Below, one piece after another: positions 1-14,083 of a DNA stretch of 64,000 bases; the stretch's first letter is position 1, and each line of letters begins with the position of its first letter. Source of the DNA: Candidatus Latescibacterota bacterium (GTDB taxonomy: Bacteria > Latescibacterota > UBA2968 > UBA8231); contig OZ241867.1 of NCBI GenBank assembly GCA_965203175.1, forward strand, positions 928,001 through 992,000, written 5' to 3'. Made by a program: the position numbers and the translations under genes. The notes beneath the pieces were generated by a model. That model was not told the DNA's origin, searched no databases, and saw nothing but the letters and a program-made list of their open reading frames with translations.

Positions 1-161
1 AAGGCGAGACCGGCCATAAAGGCGGCTAGGACGATGCTGACAGCAAAGGTGCTGACCCCGAACACGGGCATCAACATGCGCACCCAGACGACTTGATAGA
101 CGAGGGAGCAGGCCCCGGAAAAAAAGAATAGGACCAGCAGAGCCAAGGGGGTTTTGCTCAC
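1..161 (-). CDS. Fused MFS/spermidine synthase-like membrane protein, N-terminal part (runs off window)
   Basis: Manual translation from GTG at 161: MSKTPLALLVLFFFSGACSLVYQVVWVRMLMPVFGVSTFAVSIVLAAFMAGLA, the typical FFxSGxxxLxYQ/EVVW N-terminus. Confidence 0.75.
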   Translation of the reverse strand, partial: MSKTPLALLVLFFFSGACSLVYQVVWVRMLMPVFGVSTFAVSIVLAAFMAGLA

Positions 162-237
162 GACCGATCCTTTGTATAGCAATTCGTAGTCATTTACAAA
201 TGATAAGCATGGGTTGGTTCCCCAACACTTGCAAAAA

Positions 238-264
238 GTCATTCCGGTGAATATCAGAATCCAG
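238..264. repeat. Degenerate short palindromic REP-like element
   Basis: GTCATTCCGGTGAATATCAGAATCCAG resembles the widespread GTCATTCCCGCGAAAGCGGGAATCCAG-type hairpin. Confidence 0.4.
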
Positions 265-332
265 AGGGACGGTCTGAGTGGCGATTTTCTATCCAAATTC
301 GTCACCGACCAGTTTCGTTCTAATTACGCTAT

Positions 333-358
333 TGAGTAAAATTACTCAGTAGTATAAT
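333..358 (+). promoter_or_regulatory. Palindromic operator TGAGTAA-AA-TTACTCA plus TATAAT (copy 1)
   Basis: 7-2-7 inverted repeat 333-348; TATAAT 353-358; ATG 9 nt later with no Shine-Dalgarno. Confidence 0.65.
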
Positions 359-459
359 TTAATCTGTATGGCACTCTTCCAACGTCCTCAAGTCGCCACG
401 CTCTACAGCCGTTTTCTATTCAAATTCGTCACCGACCAGTTTCGTGCTAATTACGCTAT

Positions 460-485
460 TGAGTAAAATTACTCAGTAGTATAAT
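460..485 (+). promoter_or_regulatory. Palindromic operator plus TATAAT (copy 2); likely leaderless or short-leader promoter of the AAA ATPase
   Basis: Inverted repeat 460-475; TATAAT 480-485; ATG at 495. Confidence 0.65.
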
Positions 486-494
486 TTAATCTGT

Positions 495-1745
495 ATGGCA
501 CTCTTCCAACGTCCTCAAGTCGCCACGCTCTACAGCCGGCTTGCCGAGCCGCCCCGGCAGCTTATTGCCCTGTTCGGGCCGCGCCAAACCGGCAAGACCA
601 CCATTGTGCGCCAAGCACTGCGGCAGATTGACCTCGAAAGCCGCTACTTGGCCGTTGATGAACCTGACTCTACCGAATTTCGCGTCCCATCCGCTACGAC
701 GGAGGCGACCTTCCTTGCTCCCCAAGTACGAGACGCGGAATGGCTGGTGCGCCACTGGGAAGAAGCCCGGCGCGAGGCGGAACAATTGGGGGGATTCGTG
801 CTGGTGTTCGACGAGATTCAGAAGGTTCCCCAGTGGTCGGAGATCATCAAGGGCCTGTGGGACGCCGACCGCGCCAGAGATTGTCCCTTGCACGTGGTCA
901 TCCTCGGCTCGGCCCCACTGCTCATGCAATCGGGATTGAGCGAGAGCCTCGCCGGCCGCTTTGAATCTATTCGCGTCACTCACTGGTCGTTCGACGAAAT
1001 GTCCGCGGCCTTCGACTTCGACCTGCCGCGCTACCTCTACTTTGGTAGCTACCCAGGCGCGGCTCCGTTCGTTCGGGACCCGGATCGATGGCGCGATTAT
1101 ATCCTCGGCGCACTCGTCGAGCCGAATATCGAACGCGACCTCCTCGCCATGACCCGAGTGGACAAACCAGCGCTGCTGAAGCGGCTTTTTGAGTTGGGAG
1201 CCGTCTATTCCGGGCAGATCCTGTCGTACACCAAAATGCTGGGACAGCTCCAAGACGCCGGCAACACGACCACCCTAGCGCGCTACCTCGATTTGCTTGC
1301 GAGCGCCGGATTGTTGGCTGGGGTGCCGAAATACGCGGGTCGAGTGCATCGGGTTCGCGCCTCAAGCCCCAAGCTCAATGTGCTCAACACGGCCCTGATG
1401 ACCGCCGGTTCAGGGTATTCCTTCGTTGAGGCGCAGGCGGACCGCAGCTTCTGGGGGCGCATCGTCGAGAGCGCGGTCGGCGCACACTTGTTCAACACTG
1501 CGACATCCGACATCCGTCTTCACTACTGGCGAGACGGGTCGCACGAGGTTGACTTCGTCCTGCAACGGGGCACTCGAATCGTCGCCATCGAAGTGAAAAG
1601 CGGCGCGAAGAGAATGCCCTTGGGAGGCATGGAAGAGTTTGAGCAGCGCTTTAGTCCCCGTCGCTCGCTGCTCGTTGGAGAAGGCGGGGTACCGCTCAAC
1701 GAGTTTCTCACGGCACCCGCTCATTACTGGTTCGAGGAAGCATGA
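495..1745 (+). CDS. ATP-binding protein, AAA_14 + DUF4143 (C-terminal PD-(D/E)XK-like)
   Basis: Walker A GPRQTGKTT, Walker B LVFDEIQK, LGS..ESLAGRF, C-terminal YWRD..EVDFV..IEVKSG. Confidence 0.9.
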   Translation: MALFQRPQVATLYSRLAEPPRQLIALFGPRQTGKTTIVRQALRQIDLESRYLAVDEPDSTEFRVPSATTEATFLAPQVRDAEWLVRHWEEARREAEQLGGFVLVFDEIQKVPQWSEIIKGLWDADRARDCPLHVVILGSAPLLMQSGLSESLAGRFESIRVTHWSFDEMSAAFDFDLPRYLYFGSYPGAAPFVRDPDRWRDYILGALVEPNIERDLLAMTRVDKPALLKRLFELGAVYSGQILSYTKMLGQLQDAGNTTTLARYLDLLASAGLLAGVPKYAGRVHRVRASSPKLNVLNTALMTAGSGYSFVEAQADRSFWGRIVESAVGAHLFNTATSDIRLHYWRDGSHEVDFVLQRGTRIVAIEVKSGAKRMPLGGMEEFEQRFSPRRSLLVGEGGVPLNEFLTAPAHYWFEEA

Positions 1746-4700
1746 GCATAATCGTCCCCCGTACCTGCACTGAAATCTCAGCGGAGAATGCGGATCAGCA
1801 TCGGGAGAAGGAGTCTCGGCCTCTCGAAGCGTTCCGGGATACACCGGCCTATGTGTTGCTTGGCGATCCTGGGGCAGGCAAGACGACTGCGTTTGAGGCC
1901 GAGTGCGAGGCGCTTGGGGAGAAAGCCTGCCTGATTATAGCCCGAGACTTCCTGACCTTCGACCCACAGAGCCATCCCGAATGGCAAGACAAGACGCTCT
2001 TTATCGACGGACTTGATGAAACCCGCGTCGGCGCGAACGACACTCGCACACCCTTTGACCAGATCCGTGGGCGTCTCGACGAGTTGGGGAAGCCCCACTT
2101 TCGCCTTTCGTGTCGGGAAGCGGACTGGCTAGGGGCAAATGATCAGAAGCACTTGGAATCTGTCTCACTGGACTCCAAGGTAACTGTTCTGCGGCTCAAT
2201 CCCCTGACGGATTCGGACATCGCCGACATCCTAAACACCAGATCGGACATCGGCGATGCTCAGGCATTTATCGCCTTAGCCCAAGAGCAGAGAGTTTATG
2301 AACTGCTGAAGAATCCACAGACCCTCAAGATGTTGGCCGATGTTGTGGCCCAAGGCGGCGGGTGGCCGAAAAGTCGCAAAGAAACTTTTGAGATGGCTTG
2401 TGGTCGGATGGTTCTCGAGCACAACGAAGAGCATCAAGCGGCGCAGGAATCAAAAAGTCCACCTGCACCCGACCGGCTCCTCGATGCCGCAGGGCGGCTC
2501 TGCGCTGTTCAATTGATTTCGGGTGCCGCCGGATACACGTTGCGCGGCCAAGCGGACGGAGAGTACCCCACTCCGGACCAGTGCGACTACGATAGCCACG
2601 AAGCGCTCCGATCTGCACTCGCCACGAAGTTATTCAAGGGCGTGTCCGATAACCGCTTCGCCCCGGTTCACCGCCACATCGCCGAATTCCTCGGTGCTCG
2701 GCACCTCGCCCAAGTCATTGACAGGGAGCCCCTCCCGGCGCGACGCATAATCGCCCTGATTGCGGGAGAGGACGGCACCGTGGTTACGGAGATGAGGGGC
2801 TTGTCGGCTTGGCTCGCGGCCCATTGCAAGGACGCCCGGGCGGACCTCATCGAACGCGATCCTATCGGCGTTGGGCTATACGGTGACATCCGCGAGTTCT
2901 CCACCGACGAGAAACGTGCGCTTTTGAAATGCTTGAACCGCGAGGCGTCCCGACTTGATTCCGCGTTTCTGAAAACCACGGCTTTTGGTGCGCTCGCCAC
3001 ACCCGATATGGAATCCCTACTAGGGGAAATCCTGAAGGGTAGCGCACGTGACAAGGACCACCAAATATTTATTGGATTCATATTGAACGTTTTGAGTGAA
3101 AGTAGCCCTCTACCGAATCTTTCCGAGATTCTGCTCGAAATCGTCCGCGACGACACGTGGTGGCCGGGTATCGATATATCGGCCCTTGGTGCCTTTATCA
3201 AAAACTGCCCGGACAGCCAAGATAAAACAAACATGCTCAAAGCGTTGCTGGCAGATATTCAAAACGGGAGTGTCTCCGGTCCAAATACCCAATACTTTGA
3301 GAGCCTGATAGCTCAGCAACTTGAGTCGGCGGCCCCTGACCCTATCAGTCGAAGCGTCAGCGAGGACCTGTCTCTAGAAGCCCCGCAGGAACATGCACGG
3401 GAAAACGAGCGGATAACGGCGATAGATATGGAGCGACTACGTCCCTCTTGGGCCACCCCGCCCAAGTCTCTGGCAAAAGAACAAGAACAAGAGGAATGGC
3501 TTAACCGTGTCCGGTCCAACAAGATCGCACTGTGTGAAAATCGCGCCACGCTCGATCTACTTTATCGCATAGGATTCGAGTACTTCGGATTCTTCTATGA
3601 TTTCAATGGCGATAAAGGACTGAAGTCCATCGAGAAGTGGCTTCTAGGCGACCACGGTTTGATCAATGCCGCTCTTGAGGGCCTTCAGGGCACGATTAAT
3701 CGGGAGGATGCTCCAGATGCCGAAGATATTCTCGGTCTTAAAGAGAAGGGCCGCACACATTATCTCGGCTTGCCGTTCCTTGCGGGCTTGGCCGAAGTCG
3801 AAAGGACAACGCCGGAAGATCCATCCCAATGGGACGACGACCAGATTCGCACGGCACTCGCTTTCTATTACTCTACGCCCCATGCCGATTATCGACCCAA
3901 ATGGTATCAACGCCTGCTTGTGGCGTGTCCTGAAATCGTCGCCGATGTGCAGAGGCAATTCGCCGTTTGTGAATTCCGCAGAAGTACTGAGCATATCTAC
4001 AAGCTCTATGAACTCGCATACGACCCGGACCACTCTCAAGTCGCCAAACACGCGAGCCTGCCCCTACTACGCGCCTTTCCGACTCGCTGCAAGCTAAAGC
4101 AGATTCAATCACTAGATTATCTGCTCTGGGCCGCAATTCAGCACGCGGACAGAGCGTCGCTTCAGGAAGTGATTGAAAAGAAGCTCTCCTCAAATAGCAT
4201 GAATGTCGCCCAACGTGTGCATTGGTTAGCGGCGAGCATCATCGTTTCGCCAAGGGCGCACAATGAGATCCTAAGCGACGTACGGGATCGAAAAGGCCGG
4301 ATTCATCACTTGGCTAAGTTTTTCTTCCCTGACGATCAAGTGCGACCTTCGCTCCCTGAACTGAGGGTTGAGGTCTTGGAACTCCTCATCCGCCTCGTTG
4401 GCAGCTACGTCGGCTCCGATAAGTGGAAGGAAGGAGGACTAGTTACGCCTGCGCAGCGAGCCTCTCACCTTGTCAACGACCTGATCCAACGCCTCGCCGC
4501 TTCTCCCACCAAGGACGCGAGCCAAGCACTGGCCGCGCTTCTTGCAGACCCGGCGCTATCGGCTTGGAGCGACGTTCTATCACGGGCGCAGGATGCCCAA
4601 CGGATCACTTGGCGCGACGCTAGCTATCGCCCCCCCACTATCGAGCAGGTCTGCCAGACATTGAATGGCGGTACGCCCGCCAACCCCGGCGATCTCGCAG

Positions 4701-5221
4701 CCCTCGTGATGGACCGACTGCGCGAGCTTGCCGTACATATACAAAGCGGCAATACCGACGACTGGAGTCAGTACTGGAACGAACCACACGGGCAGATTCC
4801 CACTCCGAAGCACGAAGACCGCTGCCGGGATATGTTACTTTCGGCTCTACAAGTACGTCTGCGTCTCCTGCAAGGAGTCGATGCCCAACCCGAGGGACAG
4901 TACGCCAATGATAAGAGAGCCGACATACGAGTTTCATACGGAGATTTTCAGGTGCCGGTAGAAATCAAAAGGAACATGAAACGCGATCTCTGGAGCACAC
5001 CGAGAAACCAATTGATCGCCCAGTACACGATTGACCCGAACACAGACGGCTACGGCATCTACTTAGTATTCTGGTTCGGCAAAGACCGCACGCAGCCACC
5101 TCCCTCCGGCACCCGCCCCGCTAACTCCGAAGAGCTAAAAAAACGACTAGAAGCGACCCTACCGCCCGACGAAGCGCGCAAAATCTCAGTCTGCGTGATC
5201 GACGTAAGCCGACCAGACTAA
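1742..5221 (+). CDS. NACHT/STAND NTPase with helical region and C-terminal restriction-endonuclease-like domain
   Basis: LLGDPGAGKTT, LFIDGLDE, RLSCR, NPQTL, HRHIAEFLGA; C-terminal PEGQYANDKRADIRV..PVEIKR; ATGA overlap with upstream gene. Confidence 0.8.
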   Translation: MSIIVPRTCTEISAENADQHREKESRPLEAFRDTPAYVLLGDPGAGKTTAFEAECEALGEKACLIIARDFLTFDPQSHPEWQDKTLFIDGLDETRVGANDTRTPFDQIRGRLDELGKPHFRLSCREADWLGANDQKHLESVSLDSKVTVLRLNPLTDSDIADILNTRSDIGDAQAFIALAQEQRVYELLKNPQTLKMLADVVAQGGGWPKSRKETFEMACGRMVLEHNEEHQAAQESKSPPAPDRLLDAAGRLCAVQLISGAAGYTLRGQADGEYPTPDQCDYDSHEALRSALATKLFKGVSDNRFAPVHRHIAEFLGARHLAQVIDREPLPARRIIALIAGEDGTVVTEMRGLSAWLAAHCKDARADLIERDPIGVGLYGDIREFSTDEKRALLKCLNREASRLDSAFLKTTAFGALATPDMESLLGEILKGSARDKDHQIFIGFILNVLSESSPLPNLSEILLEIVRDDTWWPGIDISALGAFIKNCPDSQDKTNMLKALLADIQNGSVSGPNTQYFESLIAQQLESAAPDPISRSVSEDLSLEAPQEHARENERITAIDMERLRPSWATPPKSLAKEQEQEEWLNRVRSNKIALCENRATLDLLYRIGFEYFGFFYDFNGDKGLKSIEKWLLGDHGLINAALEGLQGTINREDAPDAEDILGLKEKGRTHYLGLPFLAGLAEVERTTPEDPSQWDDDQIRTALAFYYSTPHADYRPKWYQRLLVACPEIVADVQRQFAVCEFRRSTEHIYKLYELAYDPDHSQVAKHASLPLLRAFPTRCKLKQIQSLDYLLWAAIQHADRASLQEVIEKKLSSNSMNVAQRVHWLAASIIVSPRAHNEILSDVRDRKGRIHHLAKFFFPDDQVRPSLPELRVEVLELLIRLVGSYVGSDKWKEGGLVTPAQRASHLVNDLIQRLAASPTKDASQALAALLADPALSAWSDVLSRAQDAQRITWRDASYRPPTIEQVCQTLNGGTPANPGDLAALVMDRLRELAVHIQSGNTDDWSQYWNEPHGQIPTPKHEDRCRDMLLSALQVRLRLLQGVDAQPEGQYANDKRADIRVSYGDFQVPVEIKRNMKRDLWSTPRNQLIAQYTIDPNTDGYGIYLVFWFGKDRTQPPPSGTRPANSEELKKRLEATLPPDEARKISVCVIDVSRPD

Positions 5222-5233
5222 TCGCAACAATCG

Positions 5234-5626
5234 CTATCCAGCGTTTTCAATCGGCTGGTGGAAGTAGTAACAAAGCCCGTCGGGGGCGACTACGAAGAAA
5301 ACCTGGTATCTCTTTCCATCGCGCTCGTCCACGCGCCAATTGCCCGTCTCGACCCCGTTCGCCTCTATCTCGTCGCGGGCCTTGTGGATGTCATTCACCA
5401 AAATAGCCGCGCCTTCTTGGCTGGCATCGCCGCCATTGACCGCAAACCCGATCTGCACACCGTCGCGTTCGAGAATAACTGTCGGCACGGGATCATCGCG
5501 CCTTTCGACCTCCACGAGTCCAAAGGCCGCGCCGTACCACCTTGCGGTTTGATCGAGGTCTTCCACCGGCAAGGCGAGGATATCCTCGGCATACGGAAAA
5601 GCAGCTTCGTATAGTTTCTCTGTCAT
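5234..5626 (-). CDS. VOC/glyoxalase family protein
   Basis: LPVEDLDQTARWY..FFVVAPDGLCYYF; start MTEK follows GGAGG SD. Confidence 0.8.
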   Translation of the reverse strand: MTEKLYEAAFPYAEDILALPVEDLDQTARWYGAAFGLVEVERRDDPVPTVILERDGVQIGFAVNGGDASQEGAAILVNDIHKARDEIEANGVETGNWRVDERDGKRYQVFFVVAPDGLCYYFHQPIENAG

Positions 5627-5923
5627 GTCTTGTTCCTCCGACAATAAAAAAGTAAAACGGAATTCTCCCAAAACGATTACTCGATGAGAATTATTGTTAC
5701 CACGTGGGCCACAGCAAGAAAAATAGTTACAGCTCAATAAAAAAATAAAATCCGTAATCTGCCGTACAGTTCGGTTATTGGATAAAAGCGGTTATCGCGG
5801 GCTATGCAACCGGCACTCGACGAGAGCCAGCCAAGGATCAGAAAAACGCTTGACAGAAGGGCGGGAGGTCGAGATTGTTGGCTACCTAATGGTACAGTCG
5901 CAAGCTATGAGAAGGAAAGAAAA

Positions 5924-6673
5924 ATGACGCAGGAAGAAGCCTGGTACTTCCGCCACAACGGCTTCCACCGTGTAGTTCGTCCCCTACCGAGAAAGCTGGT
6001 GGCTCGCCTGAACGCGGTCACGGACGAACAAATCGCGACTCTAGCGGAGCCCGTCGTGTGGGAAACCAGCACCACCTCGCGCACACCCCAAGACGTGCGT
6101 CGTTTGTCGAAAATCCTAGCGCGCGATCCAGTGTATCTCGAAGCAGCGACTCACCCGATCGTACTCAATGCTCTCGCGGGCATACTCGGCGACAACATCG
6201 AACTGCTGACGAACAAACACAACCACATCATGGTGCGGCCACCGAACTCGGCCCCGGTGCCGTGGCACGCCGGCGAGGAGTTGTACGAGCCGACCTTGAT
6301 CACGGCGCTCATTTATTTAGAAGAATCGACCATCGACAACGGCTGTGTGCACCTCATCCCGGGCAGTCACTTGCGGCCTTTCGCAAAGCCGCGCCGCCCC
6401 GGCGGCGACTTCCGGCGCAACCCATTATACCGGCGCTCCCTGCCCGTGCCCATGCCAGCGGGTGGCGTGCTGCTATTCAACGACTGCTGCTTCCACGGAG
6501 CCGACGTCAACCGCAGCAATGGCTCGCGGCGCAGCATGACCCTTGGGTACCGCGCGCACGACTCGCACGACGTGCTGAAGGACGATCCAGAAAAAATCCT
6601 CGTGCGCGGCGAACGGGCCTACACCGGCCATCCCCATCCATTCCCCAACCCGAAGAAAGGGAAGAATCAGTGA
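5924..6673 (+). CDS. PhyH-family Fe(II)/2-oxoglutarate oxygenase with H-A-G iron motif (candidate halogenase)
   Basis: FRHNGF N-terminus, WHAGE, YLEESTIDNGCVHLIPGSH, FHGADVNRS..RRS; ATG 5924 after AAGGA. Confidence 0.85.
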   Translation: MTQEEAWYFRHNGFHRVVRPLPRKLVARLNAVTDEQIATLAEPVVWETSTTSRTPQDVRRLSKILARDPVYLEAATHPIVLNALAGILGDNIELLTNKHNHIMVRPPNSAPVPWHAGEELYEPTLITALIYLEESTIDNGCVHLIPGSHLRPFAKPRRPGGDFRRNPLYRRSLPVPMPAGGVLLFNDCCFHGADVNRSNGSRRSMTLGYRAHDSHDVLKDDPEKILVRGERAYTGHPHPFPNPKKGKNQ

Positions 6674-7899
6674 CCACTTGGGAAGAAAACATCCAGCAAG
6701 CGAGAACTGCGGCGCTCGAAATCCTGCAACCGTCCGCGTCGCAGTTGGAGCATGGATTGGCCTTGCACCGCGACGCCATCGTGTGCGAGTCGTACAGCCT
6801 CGGGGTGATAGCACCAATCGACGGCGAGGCCATGGCACAGGCCGTGGAGGCGCGAGCCTCAGAGGTCGAGTTGCAGTACCTGTCGGAGCAGATGCGAATG
6901 ACGCGCTGGGCATACGACGACGAGCTAAAGGCTGAGTATCTGGGAGCCTGGGAGGCGTCCGGGGTGACCTGCGCCTTTCAAAATACTGGCGAGGAGGGCA
7001 ACAACCCCATGCGCATGTTGGGGCGGCTGGCGCACTATACCCATCTGACGGATCGCATGCGCGACCACGTGGCGCGCGCCGCCTTCCCTGACGACATCGT
7101 CGCTGCAAAAGCCGCCGGACGGCACTGCATCTACCAGACGTGTAACGGCGTGCCCCTCCCAGGAGAACAGGCTACGGTCGAGCAGGAACTGCGTTTCATC
7201 AGCCAGTTCTTCGAGCTTGGCTGCCGCATGATGCATCTGACCTACAACCGCCGCAATCCAATAGGCGACGGCTGTGCCGAACCGGCCAACGCCGGTCTGA
7301 GCGACTTTGGCCGTGCCGTGATCGCCGAGATGAACAAAGTCGGCGTGATTGCCGATGTGGCCCACTCCGGCTGGCAGACCTGCCTAGACGCAGCCGAGGT
7401 GTCGCAAAAGCCAATCGTCGCCAGCCATTCGGCCTGCGCGGCCCTGAACTACCACCATCGCTGCAAGCCGGACGAGGTGATGCGGGCAATAGCCGACAAG
7501 GGCGGAACCGTGGGCATCACCAATGTGCCGGCCTTTATCGGCGGCAGCGGCTGCATCGACGCCATGCTCGACCACATCGACCACGCGGTGCAAGTCGTCG
7601 GCGTCGACCACGTGACGATTGGCACGGATCGACCTTACATTAGCTGCCGCGCCCAAGAAGAGAGCGCCAAGGTACCGGCGCGACCGGGCAACCGCCCGCG
7701 CTGGGAGGCACTGTGGGAAGTCAACGATCCCGTGCAACGCGCAGAGTGGCGTCAGGAGCGCATGTTACAGAGCACGGCGTGGACGAACTTCCCGCTGTTC
7801 ACGGTCGGCATGGTGCAACGCGGTTATGCCGATGACGACATCCGCAAAATCCTCGGCGGCAACATTCTCAGAGTTGCCCGAGAGGTGCTGGGAGAGTAG
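6670..7899 (+). CDS. Membrane dipeptidase (M19)-like amidohydrolase, atypical metal site
   Basis: LTYNRRN.IGDG, GLSDFGRAVIAEMN, DVAHSG, ASHS, IGTD, ILGGNILRV; GTG overlaps upstream stop. Confidence 0.85.
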   Translation: MTTWEENIQQARTAALEILQPSASQLEHGLALHRDAIVCESYSLGVIAPIDGEAMAQAVEARASEVELQYLSEQMRMTRWAYDDELKAEYLGAWEASGVTCAFQNTGEEGNNPMRMLGRLAHYTHLTDRMRDHVARAAFPDDIVAAKAAGRHCIYQTCNGVPLPGEQATVEQELRFISQFFELGCRMMHLTYNRRNPIGDGCAEPANAGLSDFGRAVIAEMNKVGVIADVAHSGWQTCLDAAEVSQKPIVASHSACAALNYHHRCKPDEVMRAIADKGGTVGITNVPAFIGGSGCIDAMLDHIDHAVQVVGVDHVTIGTDRPYISCRAQEESAKVPARPGNRPRWEALWEVNDPVQRAEWRQERMLQSTAWTNFPLFTVGMVQRGYADDDIRKILGGNILRVAREVLGE

Positions 7900-7940
7900 G
7901 GAGCCGACACCTAATCCAGACAAAACGCGTGCGAATTCTT

Positions 7941-8558
7941 ATGAGCAACATCCCCATGCAAATCGACCCTAATACGATTGATACACGACCCGAACTGGTT
8001 TCGTCCAGCGAGGTGCTGGCTTCGGGCCAACGGGTTTATTTTCGCCCTTTGCGCACTGATCAAGCCGCTGAGTTAGGCGCGTACTTCACCGATTTGTCGC
8101 AGGCCACCCGCGGGGTGTACGGGCCGCACCCGTTTGACCAAGAGACGGCCGATGGCTTCTGCGCCGCGTTGGACAGCGCCCACACGCTGCGCATGCTGGC
8201 CTGGGTCGAGGAGGAGGGTATCGAGCGCATTGTGGCGTATTTCGTCGTCGAACTGGGCGTGCGGGGTGGGGACCGCCGGCGTTACGATGCACTGGATTTG
8301 GCCTTACACGACGAAACCGATTGCACCTTGGCCCCTTCCGTGGCCGATGCGTACCAGAGCCAGGGGCTGGGCAGTTTGATGATGCAGCATCTGCTCGGGC
8401 TATTGCCGCGGCTGGGGCGGCAGCGCATGCTGCTGTGGGGCGGAGTACGCGCGGACAATCCCCGCGCCGTCCACTTCTACACCAAATTCGGTTTTCGGCG
8501 CGTGGGCGATTTCGAGGCCGGGGGCACCAACAATTACGACATGATCGCAGACTTGTGA
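7941..8558 (+). CDS. GNAT N-acetyltransferase
   Basis: Motif A VADAYQSQGLGS; N.RAVHFYTKFGF. Confidence 0.85.
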   Translation: MSNIPMQIDPNTIDTRPELVSSSEVLASGQRVYFRPLRTDQAAELGAYFTDLSQATRGVYGPHPFDQETADGFCAALDSAHTLRMLAWVEEEGIERIVAYFVVELGVRGGDRRRYDALDLALHDETDCTLAPSVADAYQSQGLGSLMMQHLLGLLPRLGRQRMLLWGGVRADNPRAVHFYTKFGFRRVGDFEAGGTNNYDMIADL

Positions 8559-8572
8559 TAAGAGGAGAGGCA

Positions 8573-9385
8573 ATGGCGACGCTACAACTAAAGGTGCAGT
8601 ACTTCCAAGACAGCACGCCTTTAGAAGTGCCCTGCCGCGAGGAAAATTTCGTCGTGCGGGAACTGGATTTTGCCCTGCCAGTCGAGCAGACGGCGCTAGT
8701 ACTAATCGACCTGTGGAACGTGCATCACATCGATAGCTGGATCGAGCGCGCCGAGGCGGTGACTAAGGAAGTGATTGCGCCGCTCATCAGACGAGCGCGG
8801 GAATGCGACCTGACCATCGTGCAGGCACCCAGTCCCGGAGTGCTGGCCAATTTCCCGGATAAGTACGAGGTGTACCAAGGCTGCACGCCCGAGCCTGAAC
8901 CAGGGCCACCGCCGAGTTGGCCGCCGGCTGAGTTCCGCAACCGGCAGGGGGCGTATGCCTGTTTCCGGGGGCCGCGCAACCAAGAGCCGGGCATTGATCT
9001 TTATTGGCAGAGCCTAACAGGGCAACTCGATCTGTCGCCCCATATCGCCGTGGAGGAAGGGGATTTTGTCGTGGGCACCGGCCAGCAACTGCACGATTTG
9101 TGCCAGGAGCGCGGCATTCTGCACTTGCTTTTCGCTGGCTTTGCGACCAACTGGTGTATATTGGGCCGCGATTACGGCGTTCGCGCCATGCGCGGGCGAG
9201 GCTATAACACTATTTTGGTGCGGGACGCCACGGACGGAGTGGAATTTCCCGATACACTAGCGGCGCGGTGGGCCACGGAATTGGCCGTGCGCGAAGTTGA
9301 GCAAGTGCATGGCTTTTCTACCTCGACGGCCGATTTTTACGCCGCCTGCGCCGCCTCAGACTCACAGGAGAGTAAAGCACTATGA
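8573..9385 (+). CDS. Isochorismatase-family cysteine hydrolase (amidase)
   Basis: TALVLIDLWN, LLFAGFATNWCI, ILVRDAT; GAGGAG SD. Confidence 0.8.
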   Translation: MATLQLKVQYFQDSTPLEVPCREENFVVRELDFALPVEQTALVLIDLWNVHHIDSWIERAEAVTKEVIAPLIRRARECDLTIVQAPSPGVLANFPDKYEVYQGCTPEPEPGPPPSWPPAEFRNRQGAYACFRGPRNQEPGIDLYWQSLTGQLDLSPHIAVEEGDFVVGTGQQLHDLCQERGILHLLFAGFATNWCILGRDYGVRAMRGRGYNTILVRDATDGVEFPDTLAARWATELAVREVEQVHGFSTSTADFYAACAASDSQESKAL

Positions 9386-10299
9386 GTGAACCAGTCGTCT
9401 ATCTCAACGATGGCTTCGTCCCAGCTTCCCAGGCCCATCTCAATATCTACGATTTGGGGATCGTACTGGGGGCCACCCTGACCGAAATGACCCGCACGTT
9501 CAGACACGAGCCGTTTCGCTTGGAGGAACACGTGCGGCGGCTTTTGCGCTCGTGTAAATACGCCGGTATCGAGCTGTCACTGGACCACGAAGGATTGGTC
9601 GAATGCACGAGGGACTTGATCCAGACCAATAGCAAGCTGATCGGCCCCGAGCAGGATTTGGGAGTCGTCCACTTTGCAACGCCCGGGGAAAACCAGATCT
9701 ACGCCGGCAGCGCGGGGAAATCGGTGCGCCTGACACCCACGTTGTGCATCCACTCCTTTCCGCTGCCCTTTGCCGTGTGGCGGCCCTATTTTGAGCAGGG
9801 CATTCACGCGGTCACCCCCTCCATCCGCCACGTGCCACCCCAATGCGTTGACCCCAAGACCAAAAACCGCTCGCGCTTGCACTATTGGCTGGCCGACAAG
9901 CAGTCTCAGGCGGTCGATCCCGCTGCTACCTCGCTGCTGCTCGATTTGGACGGCAACCTCACCGAGTGCTCGGGGGCCAACTTCGTCGTGGTAGAAAACG
10001 ACACAATTTTTACGCCCACCAGCCGCAATATCCTAGAAGGGGTGAGTTTGGTGACGCTGCGAGAATTGGCACCCGAGTTGGGGCTGGGCTGGGTCGAGAA
10101 GAATTTACAGCCCTACGACGCGGTCAATGCAGACGAGGCTTGGTTGACCAGCACGCCCTATTGTCTGGCGCCGTGTACGCGCATCAACAATACACCCATT
10201 GGCGACGGGAAGCCTGGCCCTCTGTTCCATCGGGTGATGGAGGCGTGGAGCCAGCGAGTGGGGATGGATATTCTAGAGCAAATAAAAAACGCAGACTGA
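9382..10299 (+). CDS. Aminotransferase class IV (PLP fold type IV)
   Basis: VYLNDGFVP, FRLEEHVRRL, PLP lysine in KTKNRSR, ECSGANF, ILEGVS, ADEAWLTST. Confidence 0.9.
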   Translation: MSEPVVYLNDGFVPASQAHLNIYDLGIVLGATLTEMTRTFRHEPFRLEEHVRRLLRSCKYAGIELSLDHEGLVECTRDLIQTNSKLIGPEQDLGVVHFATPGENQIYAGSAGKSVRLTPTLCIHSFPLPFAVWRPYFEQGIHAVTPSIRHVPPQCVDPKTKNRSRLHYWLADKQSQAVDPAATSLLLDLDGNLTECSGANFVVVENDTIFTPTSRNILEGVSLVTLRELAPELGLGWVEKNLQPYDAVNADEAWLTSTPYCLAPCTRINNTPIGDGKPGPLFHRVMEAWSQRVGMDILEQIKNAD

Positions 10300-10323
10300 G
10301 CGGTGGCGCGGGGCGAACGCGGA

Positions 10324-11139
10324 TCAGTCCCAATCGACCTTCTGGTAGCGCTTTAGCAACTGTTGACCTTTTTCGGAGAGCGACTCGTAGGCAGCCTGCG
10401 GCATCTCGATGTTGTGCGCGATGGCGTACCAGTCGCGGCAATAGCAGACGACGAGCTCTGGACGCGGGTCTGGGGTGCGGTTGGGCGTGCCTCGGTGGAG
10501 GGTGCGCACGTCTTGGATCCACATTGATCCCTTTTTGAGGTTGAGGCGGTGGGCCGAGGGGAAGTGGCCCTTGAGGAGAATTTCGTCGTAACGCCCTTCG
10601 AGTTCTGGGTCGGCTATATACTGAGTCGAAGGAAGCACCTCAAAGCTGCCGTTTTCCTCCGAGGTCTCGACCAAGGGAAACTTGACGCCTACTATGGGAA
10701 CGGTTTCGAGGCCGACGTGGGGGATCTCGCGGGCGATGCCGGTGTCGCGGTGCCAGACTTGGAAGGCGCTCTCCGCGCAGGGGGTATTGGAGTGGTAGCA
10801 GGTGATGACGTAGCCGTCGGGGCGCCAGAAGCGATCGAGAAATTCTAAAATGACCGGGTGTTCGTAAATGGCCGGGTCGGCAAAGGGTTCGATCCACGGG
10901 ATGGTCAGGGTGTAGCGGTTGGTCGTCTGCAAGCGTCCCTGGCCGATGCGCGGGTCGCCGAGTTCGACATTAGACACCTCGGTTTCTCGCTCCTGGATGT
11001 GCGCCAGCAGTGGCAGGAATGCCTCGCGGATTCGGTCAATCTTTTCCTCGGGAATCATGTCCTCAAAGACGGCGTAGCCGTTGATCTTGAATTCGGCGAG
11101 CTTGAGGTCGAAATCTACATCGGCGCAGGTGAGGGTCAT
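10324..11139 (-). CDS. PhyH-family dioxygenase
   Basis: FKINGY, WHRD, ENGSFEVLPSTQ, LHRGTPN..RP. Confidence 0.85.
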   Translation of the reverse strand: MTLTCADVDFDLKLAEFKINGYAVFEDMIPEEKIDRIREAFLPLLAHIQERETEVSNVELGDPRIGQGRLQTTNRYTLTIPWIEPFADPAIYEHPVILEFLDRFWRPDGYVITCYHSNTPCAESAFQVWHRDTGIAREIPHVGLETVPIVGVKFPLVETSEENGSFEVLPSTQYIADPELEGRYDEILLKGHFPSAHRLNLKKGSMWIQDVRTLHRGTPNRTPDPRPELVVCYCRDWYAIAHNIEMPQAAYESLSEKGQQLLKRYQKVDWD

Positions 11140-11168
11140 GGCAATCTCCGTTCGTTTTGGTCTTGGTG

Positions 11169-11906
11169 CTACACTGAGTCCCCGGTGCTCCCCTTGAGAC
11201 AGTCCAGCAGTTGCGTGCCTCGGTCCATGAGCAGGTCGAGGTCCGACTTGAAGGTGAGGGCTTGGAAGCCTGCGGCTTTTTTGGCCGCAAAGTCCTCGGG
11301 GGAATACGTATTGCAACAGGGTTTTTTGCCGGCTGCAAGGGTTGTGGTGACAATCCGCTCCATCGCCGCCTGATAGGCGGGGTGCTGCTCGTAGCTGGAG
11401 CGATGGCGCGACAGGCCCATCGATAGCGCGAGGTCAACCGGCCCGACAAAGCAGCCATCGACGCCAGGCAGGGCCATGATTTCTTCGGCTTGCTCAACGG
11501 CGTCAATGTGTTCCATTTGCACTAGCAGCAAGGTCTCGTCATTGGCCTTTTCAAAGTAGTCGTCGCCGTAGTGGAGATAGTGGTCGCCGCCCAGCGAGCG
11601 CACCCCAGTGGGTGGGTACTTGGCGGCGCGGGCGACGGCTTGGGCCTCGGCGAGCGAGTTGACCATGGGCACGACGACCCCGCCCGCTCCTATATCGAGG
11701 GCTTTTTCCACTTCGCCGGGATTGCCGATGGAGGTGCGGATCAAGGGGCGAGCACCAGTCGGGCGGGCGGCGTAGATGCACTCATAGGCGGTTTCCCAAT
11801 TCATCGCACCGTGTTGGAGGTCGAGGACGATCCAGTCCCAGCCCATCAGCCCCAAGTAGCGGGAAATCGCCGGTTGGGGAATGGTCTGCCAGATGCCAAC
11901 ATCCAT
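11169..11906 (-). CDS. HpcH/HpaI aldolase family
   Basis: LDLQHG, LDIGAGGVVVPMVN, KYPP.G.RS, QMEH, FVGPVDL. Confidence 0.9.
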   Translation of the reverse strand: MDVGIWQTIPQPAISRYLGLMGWDWIVLDLQHGAMNWETAYECIYAARPTGARPLIRTSIGNPGEVEKALDIGAGGVVVPMVNSLAEAQAVARAAKYPPTGVRSLGGDHYLHYGDDYFEKANDETLLLVQMEHIDAVEQAEEIMALPGVDGCFVGPVDLALSMGLSRHRSSYEQHPAYQAAMERIVTTTLAAGKKPCCNTYSPEDFAAKKAAGFQALTFKSDLDLLMDRGTQLLDCLKGSTGDSV

Positions 11907-11909
11907 CGC

Positions 11910-12740
11910 CTAGAGGCCGATCTGCTCGGCGGGCGCGTTGGGCATGCCCGGATGCGAACCGCCAGCGTTCTTAGAGAGGTTGCCGCCGTCTAGGGGCAGC
12001 ATCGCGCCGGTGATCCAAGCCGAGGCGTCCGAGGCGAGAAAAATTGCCGCGCCCTTGATCTCGTCGGAGTCGCCGAGACGACCCATGGGGAGGCCGCGCA
12101 AATAGGTTTCGCCCAGCGTGGAATCCACAGCGATGCGCTCCTTTAGGTCCGCGTTCATTATCTGGGCGCAGACAATGGCGTTGACGCGCACGCCCTTGGC
12201 GGCCCACTCCGTGCTCAACTCGCGGGTCATCTGCGCGGCGGCCCCCATGCCCATGCTGTACGAGAGGTGACTGCGGCCCATGGCATTGATGCCGGCGATC
12301 GACACGAGGTTGATGATGCTGCCGCCATTGCCCGAATCCATCATGCGCCGGCCAGCCTCTTGGCAACAGACCAAGCGACCGACGACGAGATTTTGCAGGG
12401 TAAACTCGACCTCCTCGGGCGTCAGGTCGAGCGGCGTGTTGCGCCGCGCATTGCCGGCCACATTGCCCACGATGTCGATGCGGCCGTATTCTGCATCTAT
12501 TAATTCAAACATGGTGCGGATTTGATCGGGTTGCGACATATCGCACGTCACCGGCAGGACGCGGCGGCCCAAGGCTTCCATTTCGCGGGCCGCCGTGGCC
12601 AAACCGTCGGCATTGATGTCGGCTAAGACGAGGTCGGCTCCCGCTTCGGCAAAGCCGGTAGCCATGGCTTTGCCGAGGCCGCTGGCCGCACCGGAGACCA
12701 AGGCGACGCGGTTGGATAGGTCGAAAAGCGGATGGGACAT
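11910..12740 (-). CDS. SDR oxidoreductase, atypical (YxxxM)
   Basis: SGAASGLG, GRIDIVGNVAG, INLVSIAG, FLASDAS.WITG..LPLDGG. Confidence 0.9.
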   Translation of the reverse strand: MSHPLFDLSNRVALVSGAASGLGKAMATGFAEAGADLVLADINADGLATAAREMEALGRRVLPVTCDMSQPDQIRTMFELIDAEYGRIDIVGNVAGNARRNTPLDLTPEEVEFTLQNLVVGRLVCCQEAGRRMMDSGNGGSIINLVSIAGINAMGRSHLSYSMGMGAAAQMTRELSTEWAAKGVRVNAIVCAQIMNADLKERIAVDSTLGETYLRGLPMGRLGDSDEIKGAAIFLASDASAWITGAMLPLDGGNLSKNAGGSHPGMPNAPAEQIGL

Positions 12741-12871: not shown

Positions 12872-13273
12872 ATGACCACTGCCATAGACGGCTGGATACG
12901 CCAGTCGCAAGAGAAAATTTTAAACGGCGCGGGCGTTACTTTGCAGGACTTAGACGCGCTGCGAGATCTACAAAACGGCGGACAGCAGCACCTCCTCTAC
13001 ATCTGGGCCGAACAAGACCGCATCGACGCGGGCGTCATCGCGTGGAATTACTTCGGCCCCTTTGATAGCGAGTTCCGCTTCGACCCCAAAAACGAATGTC
13101 CGTATGCCAGCGCGGCTGCGGCCATGGCTGACGGGTGGCGGGTGGTGTCTTTTCCGGGAGTAGAATACCCGCTGGAAAATGCCCACAACCAACTCGGGTT
13201 CGAGTTTATCCTAGAGCGCTACTTCCAGCCCGGCGAGGGGTTGGATCACACGCCGCACGGCCAACGTCAATAA
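12872..13273 (+). CDS. Hypothetical protein (PhyH-associated)
   Basis: Clean ORF heading the divergent operon; PY.SA.AAMADGWRVV segment. Confidence 0.65.
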   Translation: MTTAIDGWIRQSQEKILNGAGVTLQDLDALRDLQNGGQQHLLYIWAEQDRIDAGVIAWNYFGPFDSEFRFDPKNECPYASAAAAMADGWRVVSFPGVEYPLENAHNQLGFEFILERYFQPGEGLDHTPHGQRQ

Positions 13274-13285
13274 ACGGAGGGGGCC

Positions 13286-14083
13286 ATGGAGGCCAACTGG
13301 AAAGAGCTCAAAAAAGAATTCTTCGACACCGGCTACGTCGTACTCGACGGCTGGATCGAGCCCGAGTTGGTGGAGCGGACCAAACAGGACGCCCACCAGT
13401 GCGGAGGCATCGACATCTTCGAGTGCGAGAGCATCGGCGATTTGCTCTGCCACGCCAAGGTCGTCGAATTCATCGCCTTCCTGCTGGAGACGCCGGAGGT
13501 GGCCATCAGCCCCTTCCGCTTCTGGAACCACCTTACGCAAGGCGGGCAAAGCGATGGCGGCGGCTGGCACGTGGACGACACCTATATGTCCGACCGACCG
13601 CTGACCGAGATCTTGTGTATGTACTACCCGCAGGACGTGGAGGAAGACATGGGGCCGACCATGCTGTTGCCCGGCAGCCACCGACGGCTCTACACGCCGC
13701 CGCAGACCGCCAAACTAGGCTGGATCCGCGGGCAGCAGAAAGTGGTCGTCAAGGCCGGTGCCCTCGCCGTGACCTTCCCCTCGATTCTCCACGCCCGCGC
13801 CGCGCACTTGTCCGCCAAGCCGCGCTCCATGATCAAATACGGCTACGAGGTCGCCGACCCCCAATACGGCTACTACCTGACCGAGCAGGCCTACCGCAAC
13901 TTCCGCCGCACCGAGTTAGGGCGCTCGCTGACAGAGCTAGCCGAGGTCAAAGACAAGGACGACGCGCTGTGGAACTCCTATTGGAAATCGCATCCAAGCT
14001 ATACTTTTCAAGACTTCAAGCACCAAATCGGCGTAGTCGGACGGCGGCTGCGCAAGCACCTCGACCACGAACAGATTAGCTAA
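13286..14083 (+). CDS. PhyH-family dioxygenase
   Basis: FFDTGYVVL, WHVD, MGPTMLLPGSH, ILHAR..PRSMIK. Confidence 0.85.
   Translation: MEANWKELKKEFFDTGYVVLDGWIEPELVERTKQDAHQCGGIDIFECESIGDLLCHAKVVEFIAFLLETPEVAISPFRFWNHLTQGGQSDGGGWHVDDTYMSDRPLTEILCMYYPQDVEEDMGPTMLLPGSHRRLYTPPQTAKLGWIRGQQKVVVKAGALAVTFPSILHARAAHLSAKPRSMIKYGYEVADPQYGYYLTEQAYRNFRRTELGRSLTELAEVKDKDDALWNSYWKSHPSYTFQDFKHQIGVVGRRLRKHLDHEQIS

Follow-up and report, generated by a model that had tools for sequence, protein, structure and literature searches.

We find that P0001, a PhyH-fold Fe(II)/2-oxoglutarate (2OG) enzyme of a Candidatus Latescibacterota bacterium, belongs to a clade in which glycine takes the place of the aspartate of the iron-binding triad, and in which two acids, E118 and D187, arose on the same branch as the Asp-to-Gly replacement. 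Its gene lies in the window, by which we mean the whole stretch of 64,000 nucleotides that was analysed (Table 1). We give an even chance to the reading that P0001 is an Fe/2OG oxygenase of the hydroxylase type whose carboxylate is relocated or in the second sphere, and which would resemble human AspH in action while being unrelated to it. Most likely, P0001 is an active oxygenase in which the triad carboxylate has shifted rather than vanished, and it would hydroxylate a small amino-acid- or peptide-like molecule.

Table 1. Coordinates of the principal features (window positions unless a contig or locus is named)
Feature	Position	Strand	Basis
Gene for a PhyH-fold Fe(II)/2OG enzyme, product P0001, 249 aa	5924..6673	+	ORF translation, PhyH profile, homolog alignment
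N97-K98-H99-N100-H101 motif, a mark of the subfamily (N-R-H-N-H in H-R-D relatives); K98 specific to the Gly clade	6212..6226	+	Alignment
H115-A116-G117-E118: proximal iron His, Gly replacing the triad Asp, clade-specific Glu at +3	6266..6277	+	CAC GCC GGC GAG; alignment
D187, at -4 of H191; candidate for a carboxylate that is relocated or in the second sphere	6482..6484	+	Clade comparison; parallel with AspH Asp721/His725
H191, distal iron-binding His (CAC), within F-H-G-A	6494..6496	+	Translation, alignment
R202-R203 (R202-R203-S204 from 6527); R203 specific to the Gly clade	6527..6532	+	Alignment
Peptidase_M19 (membrane-dipeptidase family) gene; its GTG start shares 4 bases with the PhyH stop (GTGA)	6670..7899	+	ORF, Pfam
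H-R-G paralog with Glu at -4, heading a second family	G000:C1:404398-404889 = L083:2207-3043	+	PhyH match, alignment

The start of P0001 agrees with the N-termini of its homologs and is preceded by an AGGA-like ribosome-binding site. The protein matches the Pfam PhyH profile (PF05721) over residues 9-204 with 86.3 bits (cut-off 22; E 4.6e-24). PhyH is the only family matched in a Pfam scan at E <= 1, and there is no match to an Asp/Asn beta-hydroxylase family. A preliminary description of the window had read the iron motif as W-H-A-G-E at 6266, with the distal histidine (FHGA, 6494) and an RRS arginine region retained, and the translation agrees: W114 directly precedes H115-A116-G117-E118, and both H191 and R202-R203-S204 are in place. 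From its position in the alignment, R202 is expected to be the conserved PhyH-family arginine that binds the C5 carboxylate of 2OG. The two PhyH paralogs that the same description had placed in the window are likewise present, one with WHRD (ORF 10324-11316, minus strand; PhyH E 4.2e-13) and one with WHVD (ORF 13286-14083, plus strand; E 4.4e-9).

The assignment of G117 to the triad position is supported by the best PDB sequence match of P0001, EvdO2 (4xab; E 2.8e-8), in which 'PWHQDE' aligns with 'PWHAGE' of P0001 so that G117 falls on the triad Asp. Canonical PhyH-family oxygenases (PHYHD1, PhyH, GriE, proline hydroxylase H11, EctD and EvdO2/AviO1) share with P0001 the distal His, the 2OG Arg and a PGSH motif; all of them have HxD where P0001 has HxG, and their identity to P0001 is just 16-23%. 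No characterised close relative of P0001 exists. A look-up in the ESM Atlas returned 'PhyH family' clusters and nothing more specific, and a search of the literature on PhyH in sponge symbionts found nothing specific.

The glycine is a property of a large family. A word-indexed search with P0001 gave 220 relatives, of which the best 120 were listed, mostly at 60-73% identity, and H-x-G-E is present in all 121 sequences formed by P0001 and these 120 listed matches. Five of the 121 also have an N-terminal look-alike (WHFRH, WHFQH) besides the true H-x-G-E. Among the aligned homologs of at least 230 aa, W114, H115, G117, E118, H191 and R202 are invariant (109/109). When 1.84 billion representatives were scanned exhaustively with HMMER, 1737 matches had E <= 1e-3; relatives at 45% identity or less share the N-x-H-N-H motif but read H-R-D. 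In a quick IQ-TREE run on 75 chosen rows, all 33 Gly rows form one branch (SH-aLRT 100) nested among N-R-H-N-H...H-R-D rows; P0142 and P0180 read H-R-D and H-Q-D in the alignment.

Within a sample of the phylum, 74 of 168 genomes contain a copy of the P0001 family at E <= 1e-60, nearly always a single one, and these genomes fall in three of 14 families (26/75, 19/22 and 28/31). Many of the source genomes are marine, according to their record titles. The preliminary description had allowed for a private mutation or sequencing error and had called for a check of orthologs; that check rules out either source, as the glycine is invariant both in the 109 aligned homologs and in all 116 members of the Gly clade described below. 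The glycine at 117 is, as judged from these alignments, an old and selected feature rather than an error. We further note that six genomes (G047, G052 and G054, all of the genus g24, and G042, G109 and G131) have six-frame matches to P0001 that contain one in-frame stop (TGA/TAA).

To compare the clade with its relatives, we used 281 sequences of 225-300 aa, which divide into 116 of the Gly clade, 128 with H-R-D and 37 that were set aside. Where the PhyH family requires HxD/E, all 116 members of the P0001 clade have G117. Glu stands at position 118 in 113 of them and Ala in three, where the H-R-D relatives have Val, Ile or some other residue that is not an acid. At position 187, 113 members of the Gly clade have Asp, one has Asn (P0274) and two have a gap; among the 128 H-R-D relatives, 92 have Ser, 31 Gly, three Ala, one Cys and one Leu, and these relatives mostly have an Asp one residue earlier, at 186. 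Besides G117, E118 and D187, the positions at which the Gly clade is fixed and its relatives differ include K98 (Arg in relatives), R203, H212, H215 and H236. On this sequence evidence, E118 and D187 appeared on the same branch as the Asp-to-Gly change, and their joint appearance with G117 within the P0001 family is one evolutionary event, not many. In the five canonical solved PhyH-family chains with alignments, the residue four before the distal His (-4) is Phe, Val, Gly, Val, Pro or Leu, never an acid. The SyrB2 residue at this position is probably Ser, and the comparison does not draw on it.

The spacing of D187 recalls that of an acid in human AspH. That enzyme has an HXG...H motif (H679, G681, H725) and holds its iron by just two residues, H679 and H725 (PMC10947486). 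A water, W1, occupies the would-be carboxylate site and is hydrogen-bonded by the second-sphere Asp721, four residues before His725; the D721A variant has much reduced activity, substrates are described there as not being halogenated, and a pseudohalide takes the other water site (PMC13168262, PMC10915816). This second-sphere carboxylate has been described as unique to AspH (PMC10915816). The G117...D187-x3-H191 arrangement of P0001 parallels G681...D721-x3-H725 of AspH, an equivalence drawn by sequence spacing and not by superposition. AspH belongs to a different DSBH family and is not a family-level homolog; it is eukaryotic, multidomain and protein-modifying, whereas P0001 is a bacterial single-domain protein of 249 aa. 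A glutamate at +3 comparable to E118 is present in P0001 and is not mentioned for AspH in the parts of the reports available to us.

By this parallel, the iron of P0001 would be held by H115 and H191, and 2OG would be anchored by R202. We infer from the spacing and the analogy that D187 adjoins the iron site and that the outcome is hydroxylation. The site opened by the Asp-to-Gly change at 117 would be served by D187, either directly or through an iron-bound water that it holds as in AspH, and E118 may assist D187 or bind substrate. Such an acidic, water-holding pocket would disfavour halide, and the ferryl intermediate would then hydroxylate.

The pairing of a missing triad acid with an acid at -4 is not confined to the P0001 family. 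In the genome that contains the window (G000, a single contig of 6.58 Mb), the PhyH family is very greatly expanded, with 45 matches at E <= 1e-5, three of them inside the window. When aligned to one profile, all 45 keep the His, His and Arg columns, and three lack the triad acid: P0001 (H-A-G), an H-R-G paralog (Table 1) and an H-G-T paralog (2393946-2394566). These three are mutually 25-28% identical. Asp or Glu stands at -4 of the distal His in all three, as compared with two of the 42 HxD paralogs (Fisher p = 7e-4). Because these two are canonical HQD proteins with Asp at -4, the -4 acid alone is not diagnostic.

The H-R-G paralog heads a second large family (806 matches), of which we examined the query and the 120 listed sequences. 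The triad position is Gly in 110 of these 121 sequences, Thr in ten and Ala in one, and Glu is found at -4 in 120, with Ile, Met, Val or Leu at +3. A triad Thr does not suit a halide pocket, and the invariant Glu at -4 fits a relocated ligand. The coupling of a missing triad acid with an acid at -4 thus recurs independently. A solute-binding-protein-like ORF lies 3' of the H-R-G paralog. The H-G-T paralog, which also has Glu at -4 (L084:2342-3247, minus strand), lies directly upstream of a canonical H-Q-D PhyH gene (L084:1453-2334, minus strand), the same order of Asp-less then canonical gene as in the H-x-G-E/H-R-D pairs of other Latescibacterota. Tandems of this kind may be a sign of oxygenases that work in pairs or as heterodimers, as TlxI/TlxJ do.

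The AF2 model of P0001, built on 142 sequences (pLDDT 95.9, pTM 0.91), has a predicted PhyH-type fold. In the model, H115 ends strand 112-115, D187 follows strand 182-186 and H191 opens strand 191-193. Its best structural matches are oxygenases with the ordinary triad, namely PHYHD1 (Z 22.9), GriE (22.8), SnoN (22.8), PhyH (22.1), proline hydroxylase H11 (22.1) and EctD (21.0), and the best fold matches (Z 21-23) have an rmsd of 2.6-3.0 over 200-217 residues.

The genomic neighbourhood adds some indication of the substrate. The M19 gene that overlaps the end of the P0001 gene is likely its operon partner, and an M19 gene lies directly 3' of the PhyH gene at ten of the 45 related loci; in two of the ten (L011, L014) identity is as low as 70%. 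Other neighbours in the window are a GNAT gene, an isochorismatase-like protein and a class IV aminotransferase, and together with the M19 gene these suggest an amine-bearing substrate; an NCBIfam search of the neighbours gave no specific name. The substrate class proposed for P0001 follows from the translational coupling to the M19 dipeptidase and from the nearest folds, which are those of free-amino-acid hydroxylases. A single-copy gene in 74 of the 168 sampled genomes is more in keeping with conserved metabolism than with a halogenated specialty product.

Some observations run against a relocated-carboxylate oxygenase. The invariance of G117 (116/116) is what would be expected if space for a halide were needed, and the second family, by comparison, tolerates Thr. 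In addition, by analogy with Glu119 of BesD, a second-sphere acid alone would not exclude halogenation. The Asp at -4 in two canonical HQD paralogs, the Asn of P0274 and the single origin of G117, E118 and D187 weigh on the same side.

Halogenation was the reading of the preliminary description, which had taken HxG as the sign of a candidate new halogenase. Its structural premise stands, since the triad carboxylate position is Gly family-wide with the second His and the 2OG Arg kept. The step from there to a halogenase is weak in view of the acids E118 and D187, the recurrent coupling, the absence of a halogenase-family match and the doubt whether P0001 would pass the structural criterion discussed below. 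That P0001 is a radical halogenase of a free substrate, its glycine site letting a halide bind the iron and then pass to a substrate radical, strikes us as unlikely. HXG/A is an accepted marker of Fe/2OG halogenases, and PhyH-annotated free-substrate halogenases do exist, including BtnX (PDB 9pv1/9q04) and AspX (PMC13489965). SyrB2/CytC3 and BtnX/AspX share with P0001 a PhyH-type double-stranded beta-helix and an Ala or Gly at the triad position. A point of difference is that no carrier protein or NRPS lies near the P0001 gene, as the preliminary description had noted; a Pfam scan of 56 window ORFs gave no such domain. The marine origin of many source genomes, as given by record titles, also favours this reading.

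A closer precedent is offered by BesD and HalB, which, like P0001, have HxG, and which act on a free substrate with a conserved second-sphere Glu adjoining the open iron site. In BesD, the conserved Glu119 hydrogen-bonds an equatorial water at the halide site, and the lysine substrate pulls Glu119 away so that chloride binds (bioRxiv 10.1101/2023.05.25.542349). An acid and a halide can therefore coexist when the substrate is cationic. Applied to P0001, E118 and D187 would form an 'electrostatic lock' that a cationic (amine) substrate neutralises, as with Glu119 of BesD. An amine-bearing substrate would fit the M19 neighbour, and it may be a compound that the coupled M19 dipeptidase makes or consumes. 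A genuine free-substrate halogenase gated in this BesD-like manner, its iron site kept locked by E118 and D187 up to the point where a substrate with an amine neutralises them and chloride or bromide binds, is likewise unlikely. The acid of BesD lies upstream of HxG (E119), whereas that of P0001 is at -4 of the distal His, and halogenation has been shown for BesD, whereas for P0001 it would be a putative activity.

Several lines of evidence argue against a halogenase. The two carboxylates arose with the Gly, one of them at the spacing of AspH, which does not halogenate, and the independent second family repeats this pattern with a triad residue that can be Thr. Membership of the SyrB2-type family is ruled out by the TIGR01762 profile, on which P0001 scores 19.8 bits where the cut-off is 226.3, a difference from SyrB2/CytC3. 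This genome has no TIGR01762 match over the cut-off. The scan of the 168 phylum genomes gave none either, but it says little, as its control matched nowhere. No solved halogenase (SyrB2, CytC3, BtnX) occurs among the 25 PDB sequences matched by P0001 at E <= 1, whereas a canonical HQD paralog from the same genome does match SyrB2 (9e-10) and CytC3 (2e-7). There is no halogenase among the best 50 structural matches of the P0001 model; in Foldseek, SyrB2 stands at rank 44. The gene is also widespread and single-copy.

The structural criterion of Kipouros and Chang bears on the same question. For them a 2-His site counts as a halogenase only if it has no Asp or Glu near enough to coordinate; of the 530,814 models, 946 came through this filter and 456,585 had such an Asp or Glu (PMC13489965). 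With E118 and D187 in the sequence, it is doubtful that the 2-His site of P0001 would be free of a nearby Asp or Glu. Motif-only HXA/G searches are said to give false positives.

A second alternative, which we regard as quite unlikely, is a register shift in which E118 supplies the third iron ligand (H-x-x-E), P0001 is an ordinary 2-His-1-carboxylate hydroxylase and D187 is structural only. E118 is invariant in 109/109 close homologs and arose on the same branch as G117, and the Gly before it would give backbone freedom. Against this stands the H-R-G-A subclade (P0122, P0270-P0272), which is nested inside the H-x-G-E rows of the tree: it lacks the Glu at 118 in 4/4 members yet keeps the Gly in all four and D187 in the 3/3 checked. 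The second family, with its aliphatic residues or Met at +3 and its acid at -4, argues in the same direction. Moreover, in the HQDE of EvdO2 a Glu comes right after the Asp that binds the metal, which means that a +3 Glu does not have to coordinate iron. We know of no H-x-x-E 2OG oxygenase. The preliminary description had itself cautioned that the Glu of HAGE might restore the carboxylate; the caution was apt but incomplete, D187 being the more conserved candidate.

Very unlikely, finally, is a site with two protein ligands only, in which a substrate carboxylate would be the third, as the substrate Asp carboxylate of AspH coordinates the metal in one conformer (PMC10947486), or in which P0001 is a non-catalytic partner of a canonical paralog in the manner of the TlxI/TlxJ heterodimer: an N-R-H-N-H...H-R-D paralog does lie directly downstream in 12 of 15 related loci examined, TlxIJ is a structural match (Z 20.5) and another Asp-less PhyH of this genome is in tandem with a canonical one, but both His, the 2OG Arg and a large number of pocket residues are strictly conserved, which speaks for a catalyst acting by itself. 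In this genome, an ortholog of the tandem H-R-D partner is absent, the best match being the H-x-G-E gene itself at 38% identity. P0001 can therefore work without this paralog, and an obligate heterodimer with the tandem H-R-D paralog is unlikely here.

The comparison with halogenases matters because Fe/2OG halogenases are widely recognised in sequences by HxG/HxA. In no fewer than two large PhyH subfamilies of bacteria, the triad acid is lacking and an acid stands at -4 of the distal His. Should D187, or in the second family the Glu, serve the iron site, they would be natural 'relocated-carboxylate' oxygenases, a false-positive class for motif-based halogenase mining and a bacterial model of AspH-type chemistry. 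If instead P0001 halogenates, the family would be a widespread new halogenase family, and halogenation would be a single-copy trait conserved in close to half of the Latescibacterota genomes sampled, of which many are marine to judge from their record titles.

The related loci have further features in common. A B12/radical-SAM gene is found nearby in 20 of 45, typically next upstream on the opposite strand. The downstream H-R-D paralog is followed by genes for nitrile hydratase beta and alpha, GFO/IDH/MocA, an aldo-keto reductase and an MFS protein. The cluster around the orthologs at 65-70% identity (L016, L018, L019, L029, L033, L044 and others; about 1-12700) is conserved. It comprises a divergent B12-binding radical SAM gene (DUF4070), the H-x-G-E PhyH, the H-R-D PhyH paralog and nitrile hydratase beta with a long alpha subunit, along with GFO/IDH/MocA oxidoreductases, an aldo-keto reductase, an MFS transporter, an amidohydrolase_2 and a glycosyltransferase-like gene.

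Elsewhere in the window, an AAA_14/DUF4143 ATPase gene (495-1745, plus strand) overlaps by 4 bases an ORF of 1159 aa (1742-5221, plus strand). The latter has no Pfam family at E <= 0.01, and its homologs, 64-77% identical, occupy the same place in related genomes. Two long ORFs on the plus strand, 13135-14079 and 13286-14083, overlap in different frames. Only the second, the WHVD paralog, matches PhyH, and the frame at 13135-14079, which has no Pfam match, is probably not the gene.
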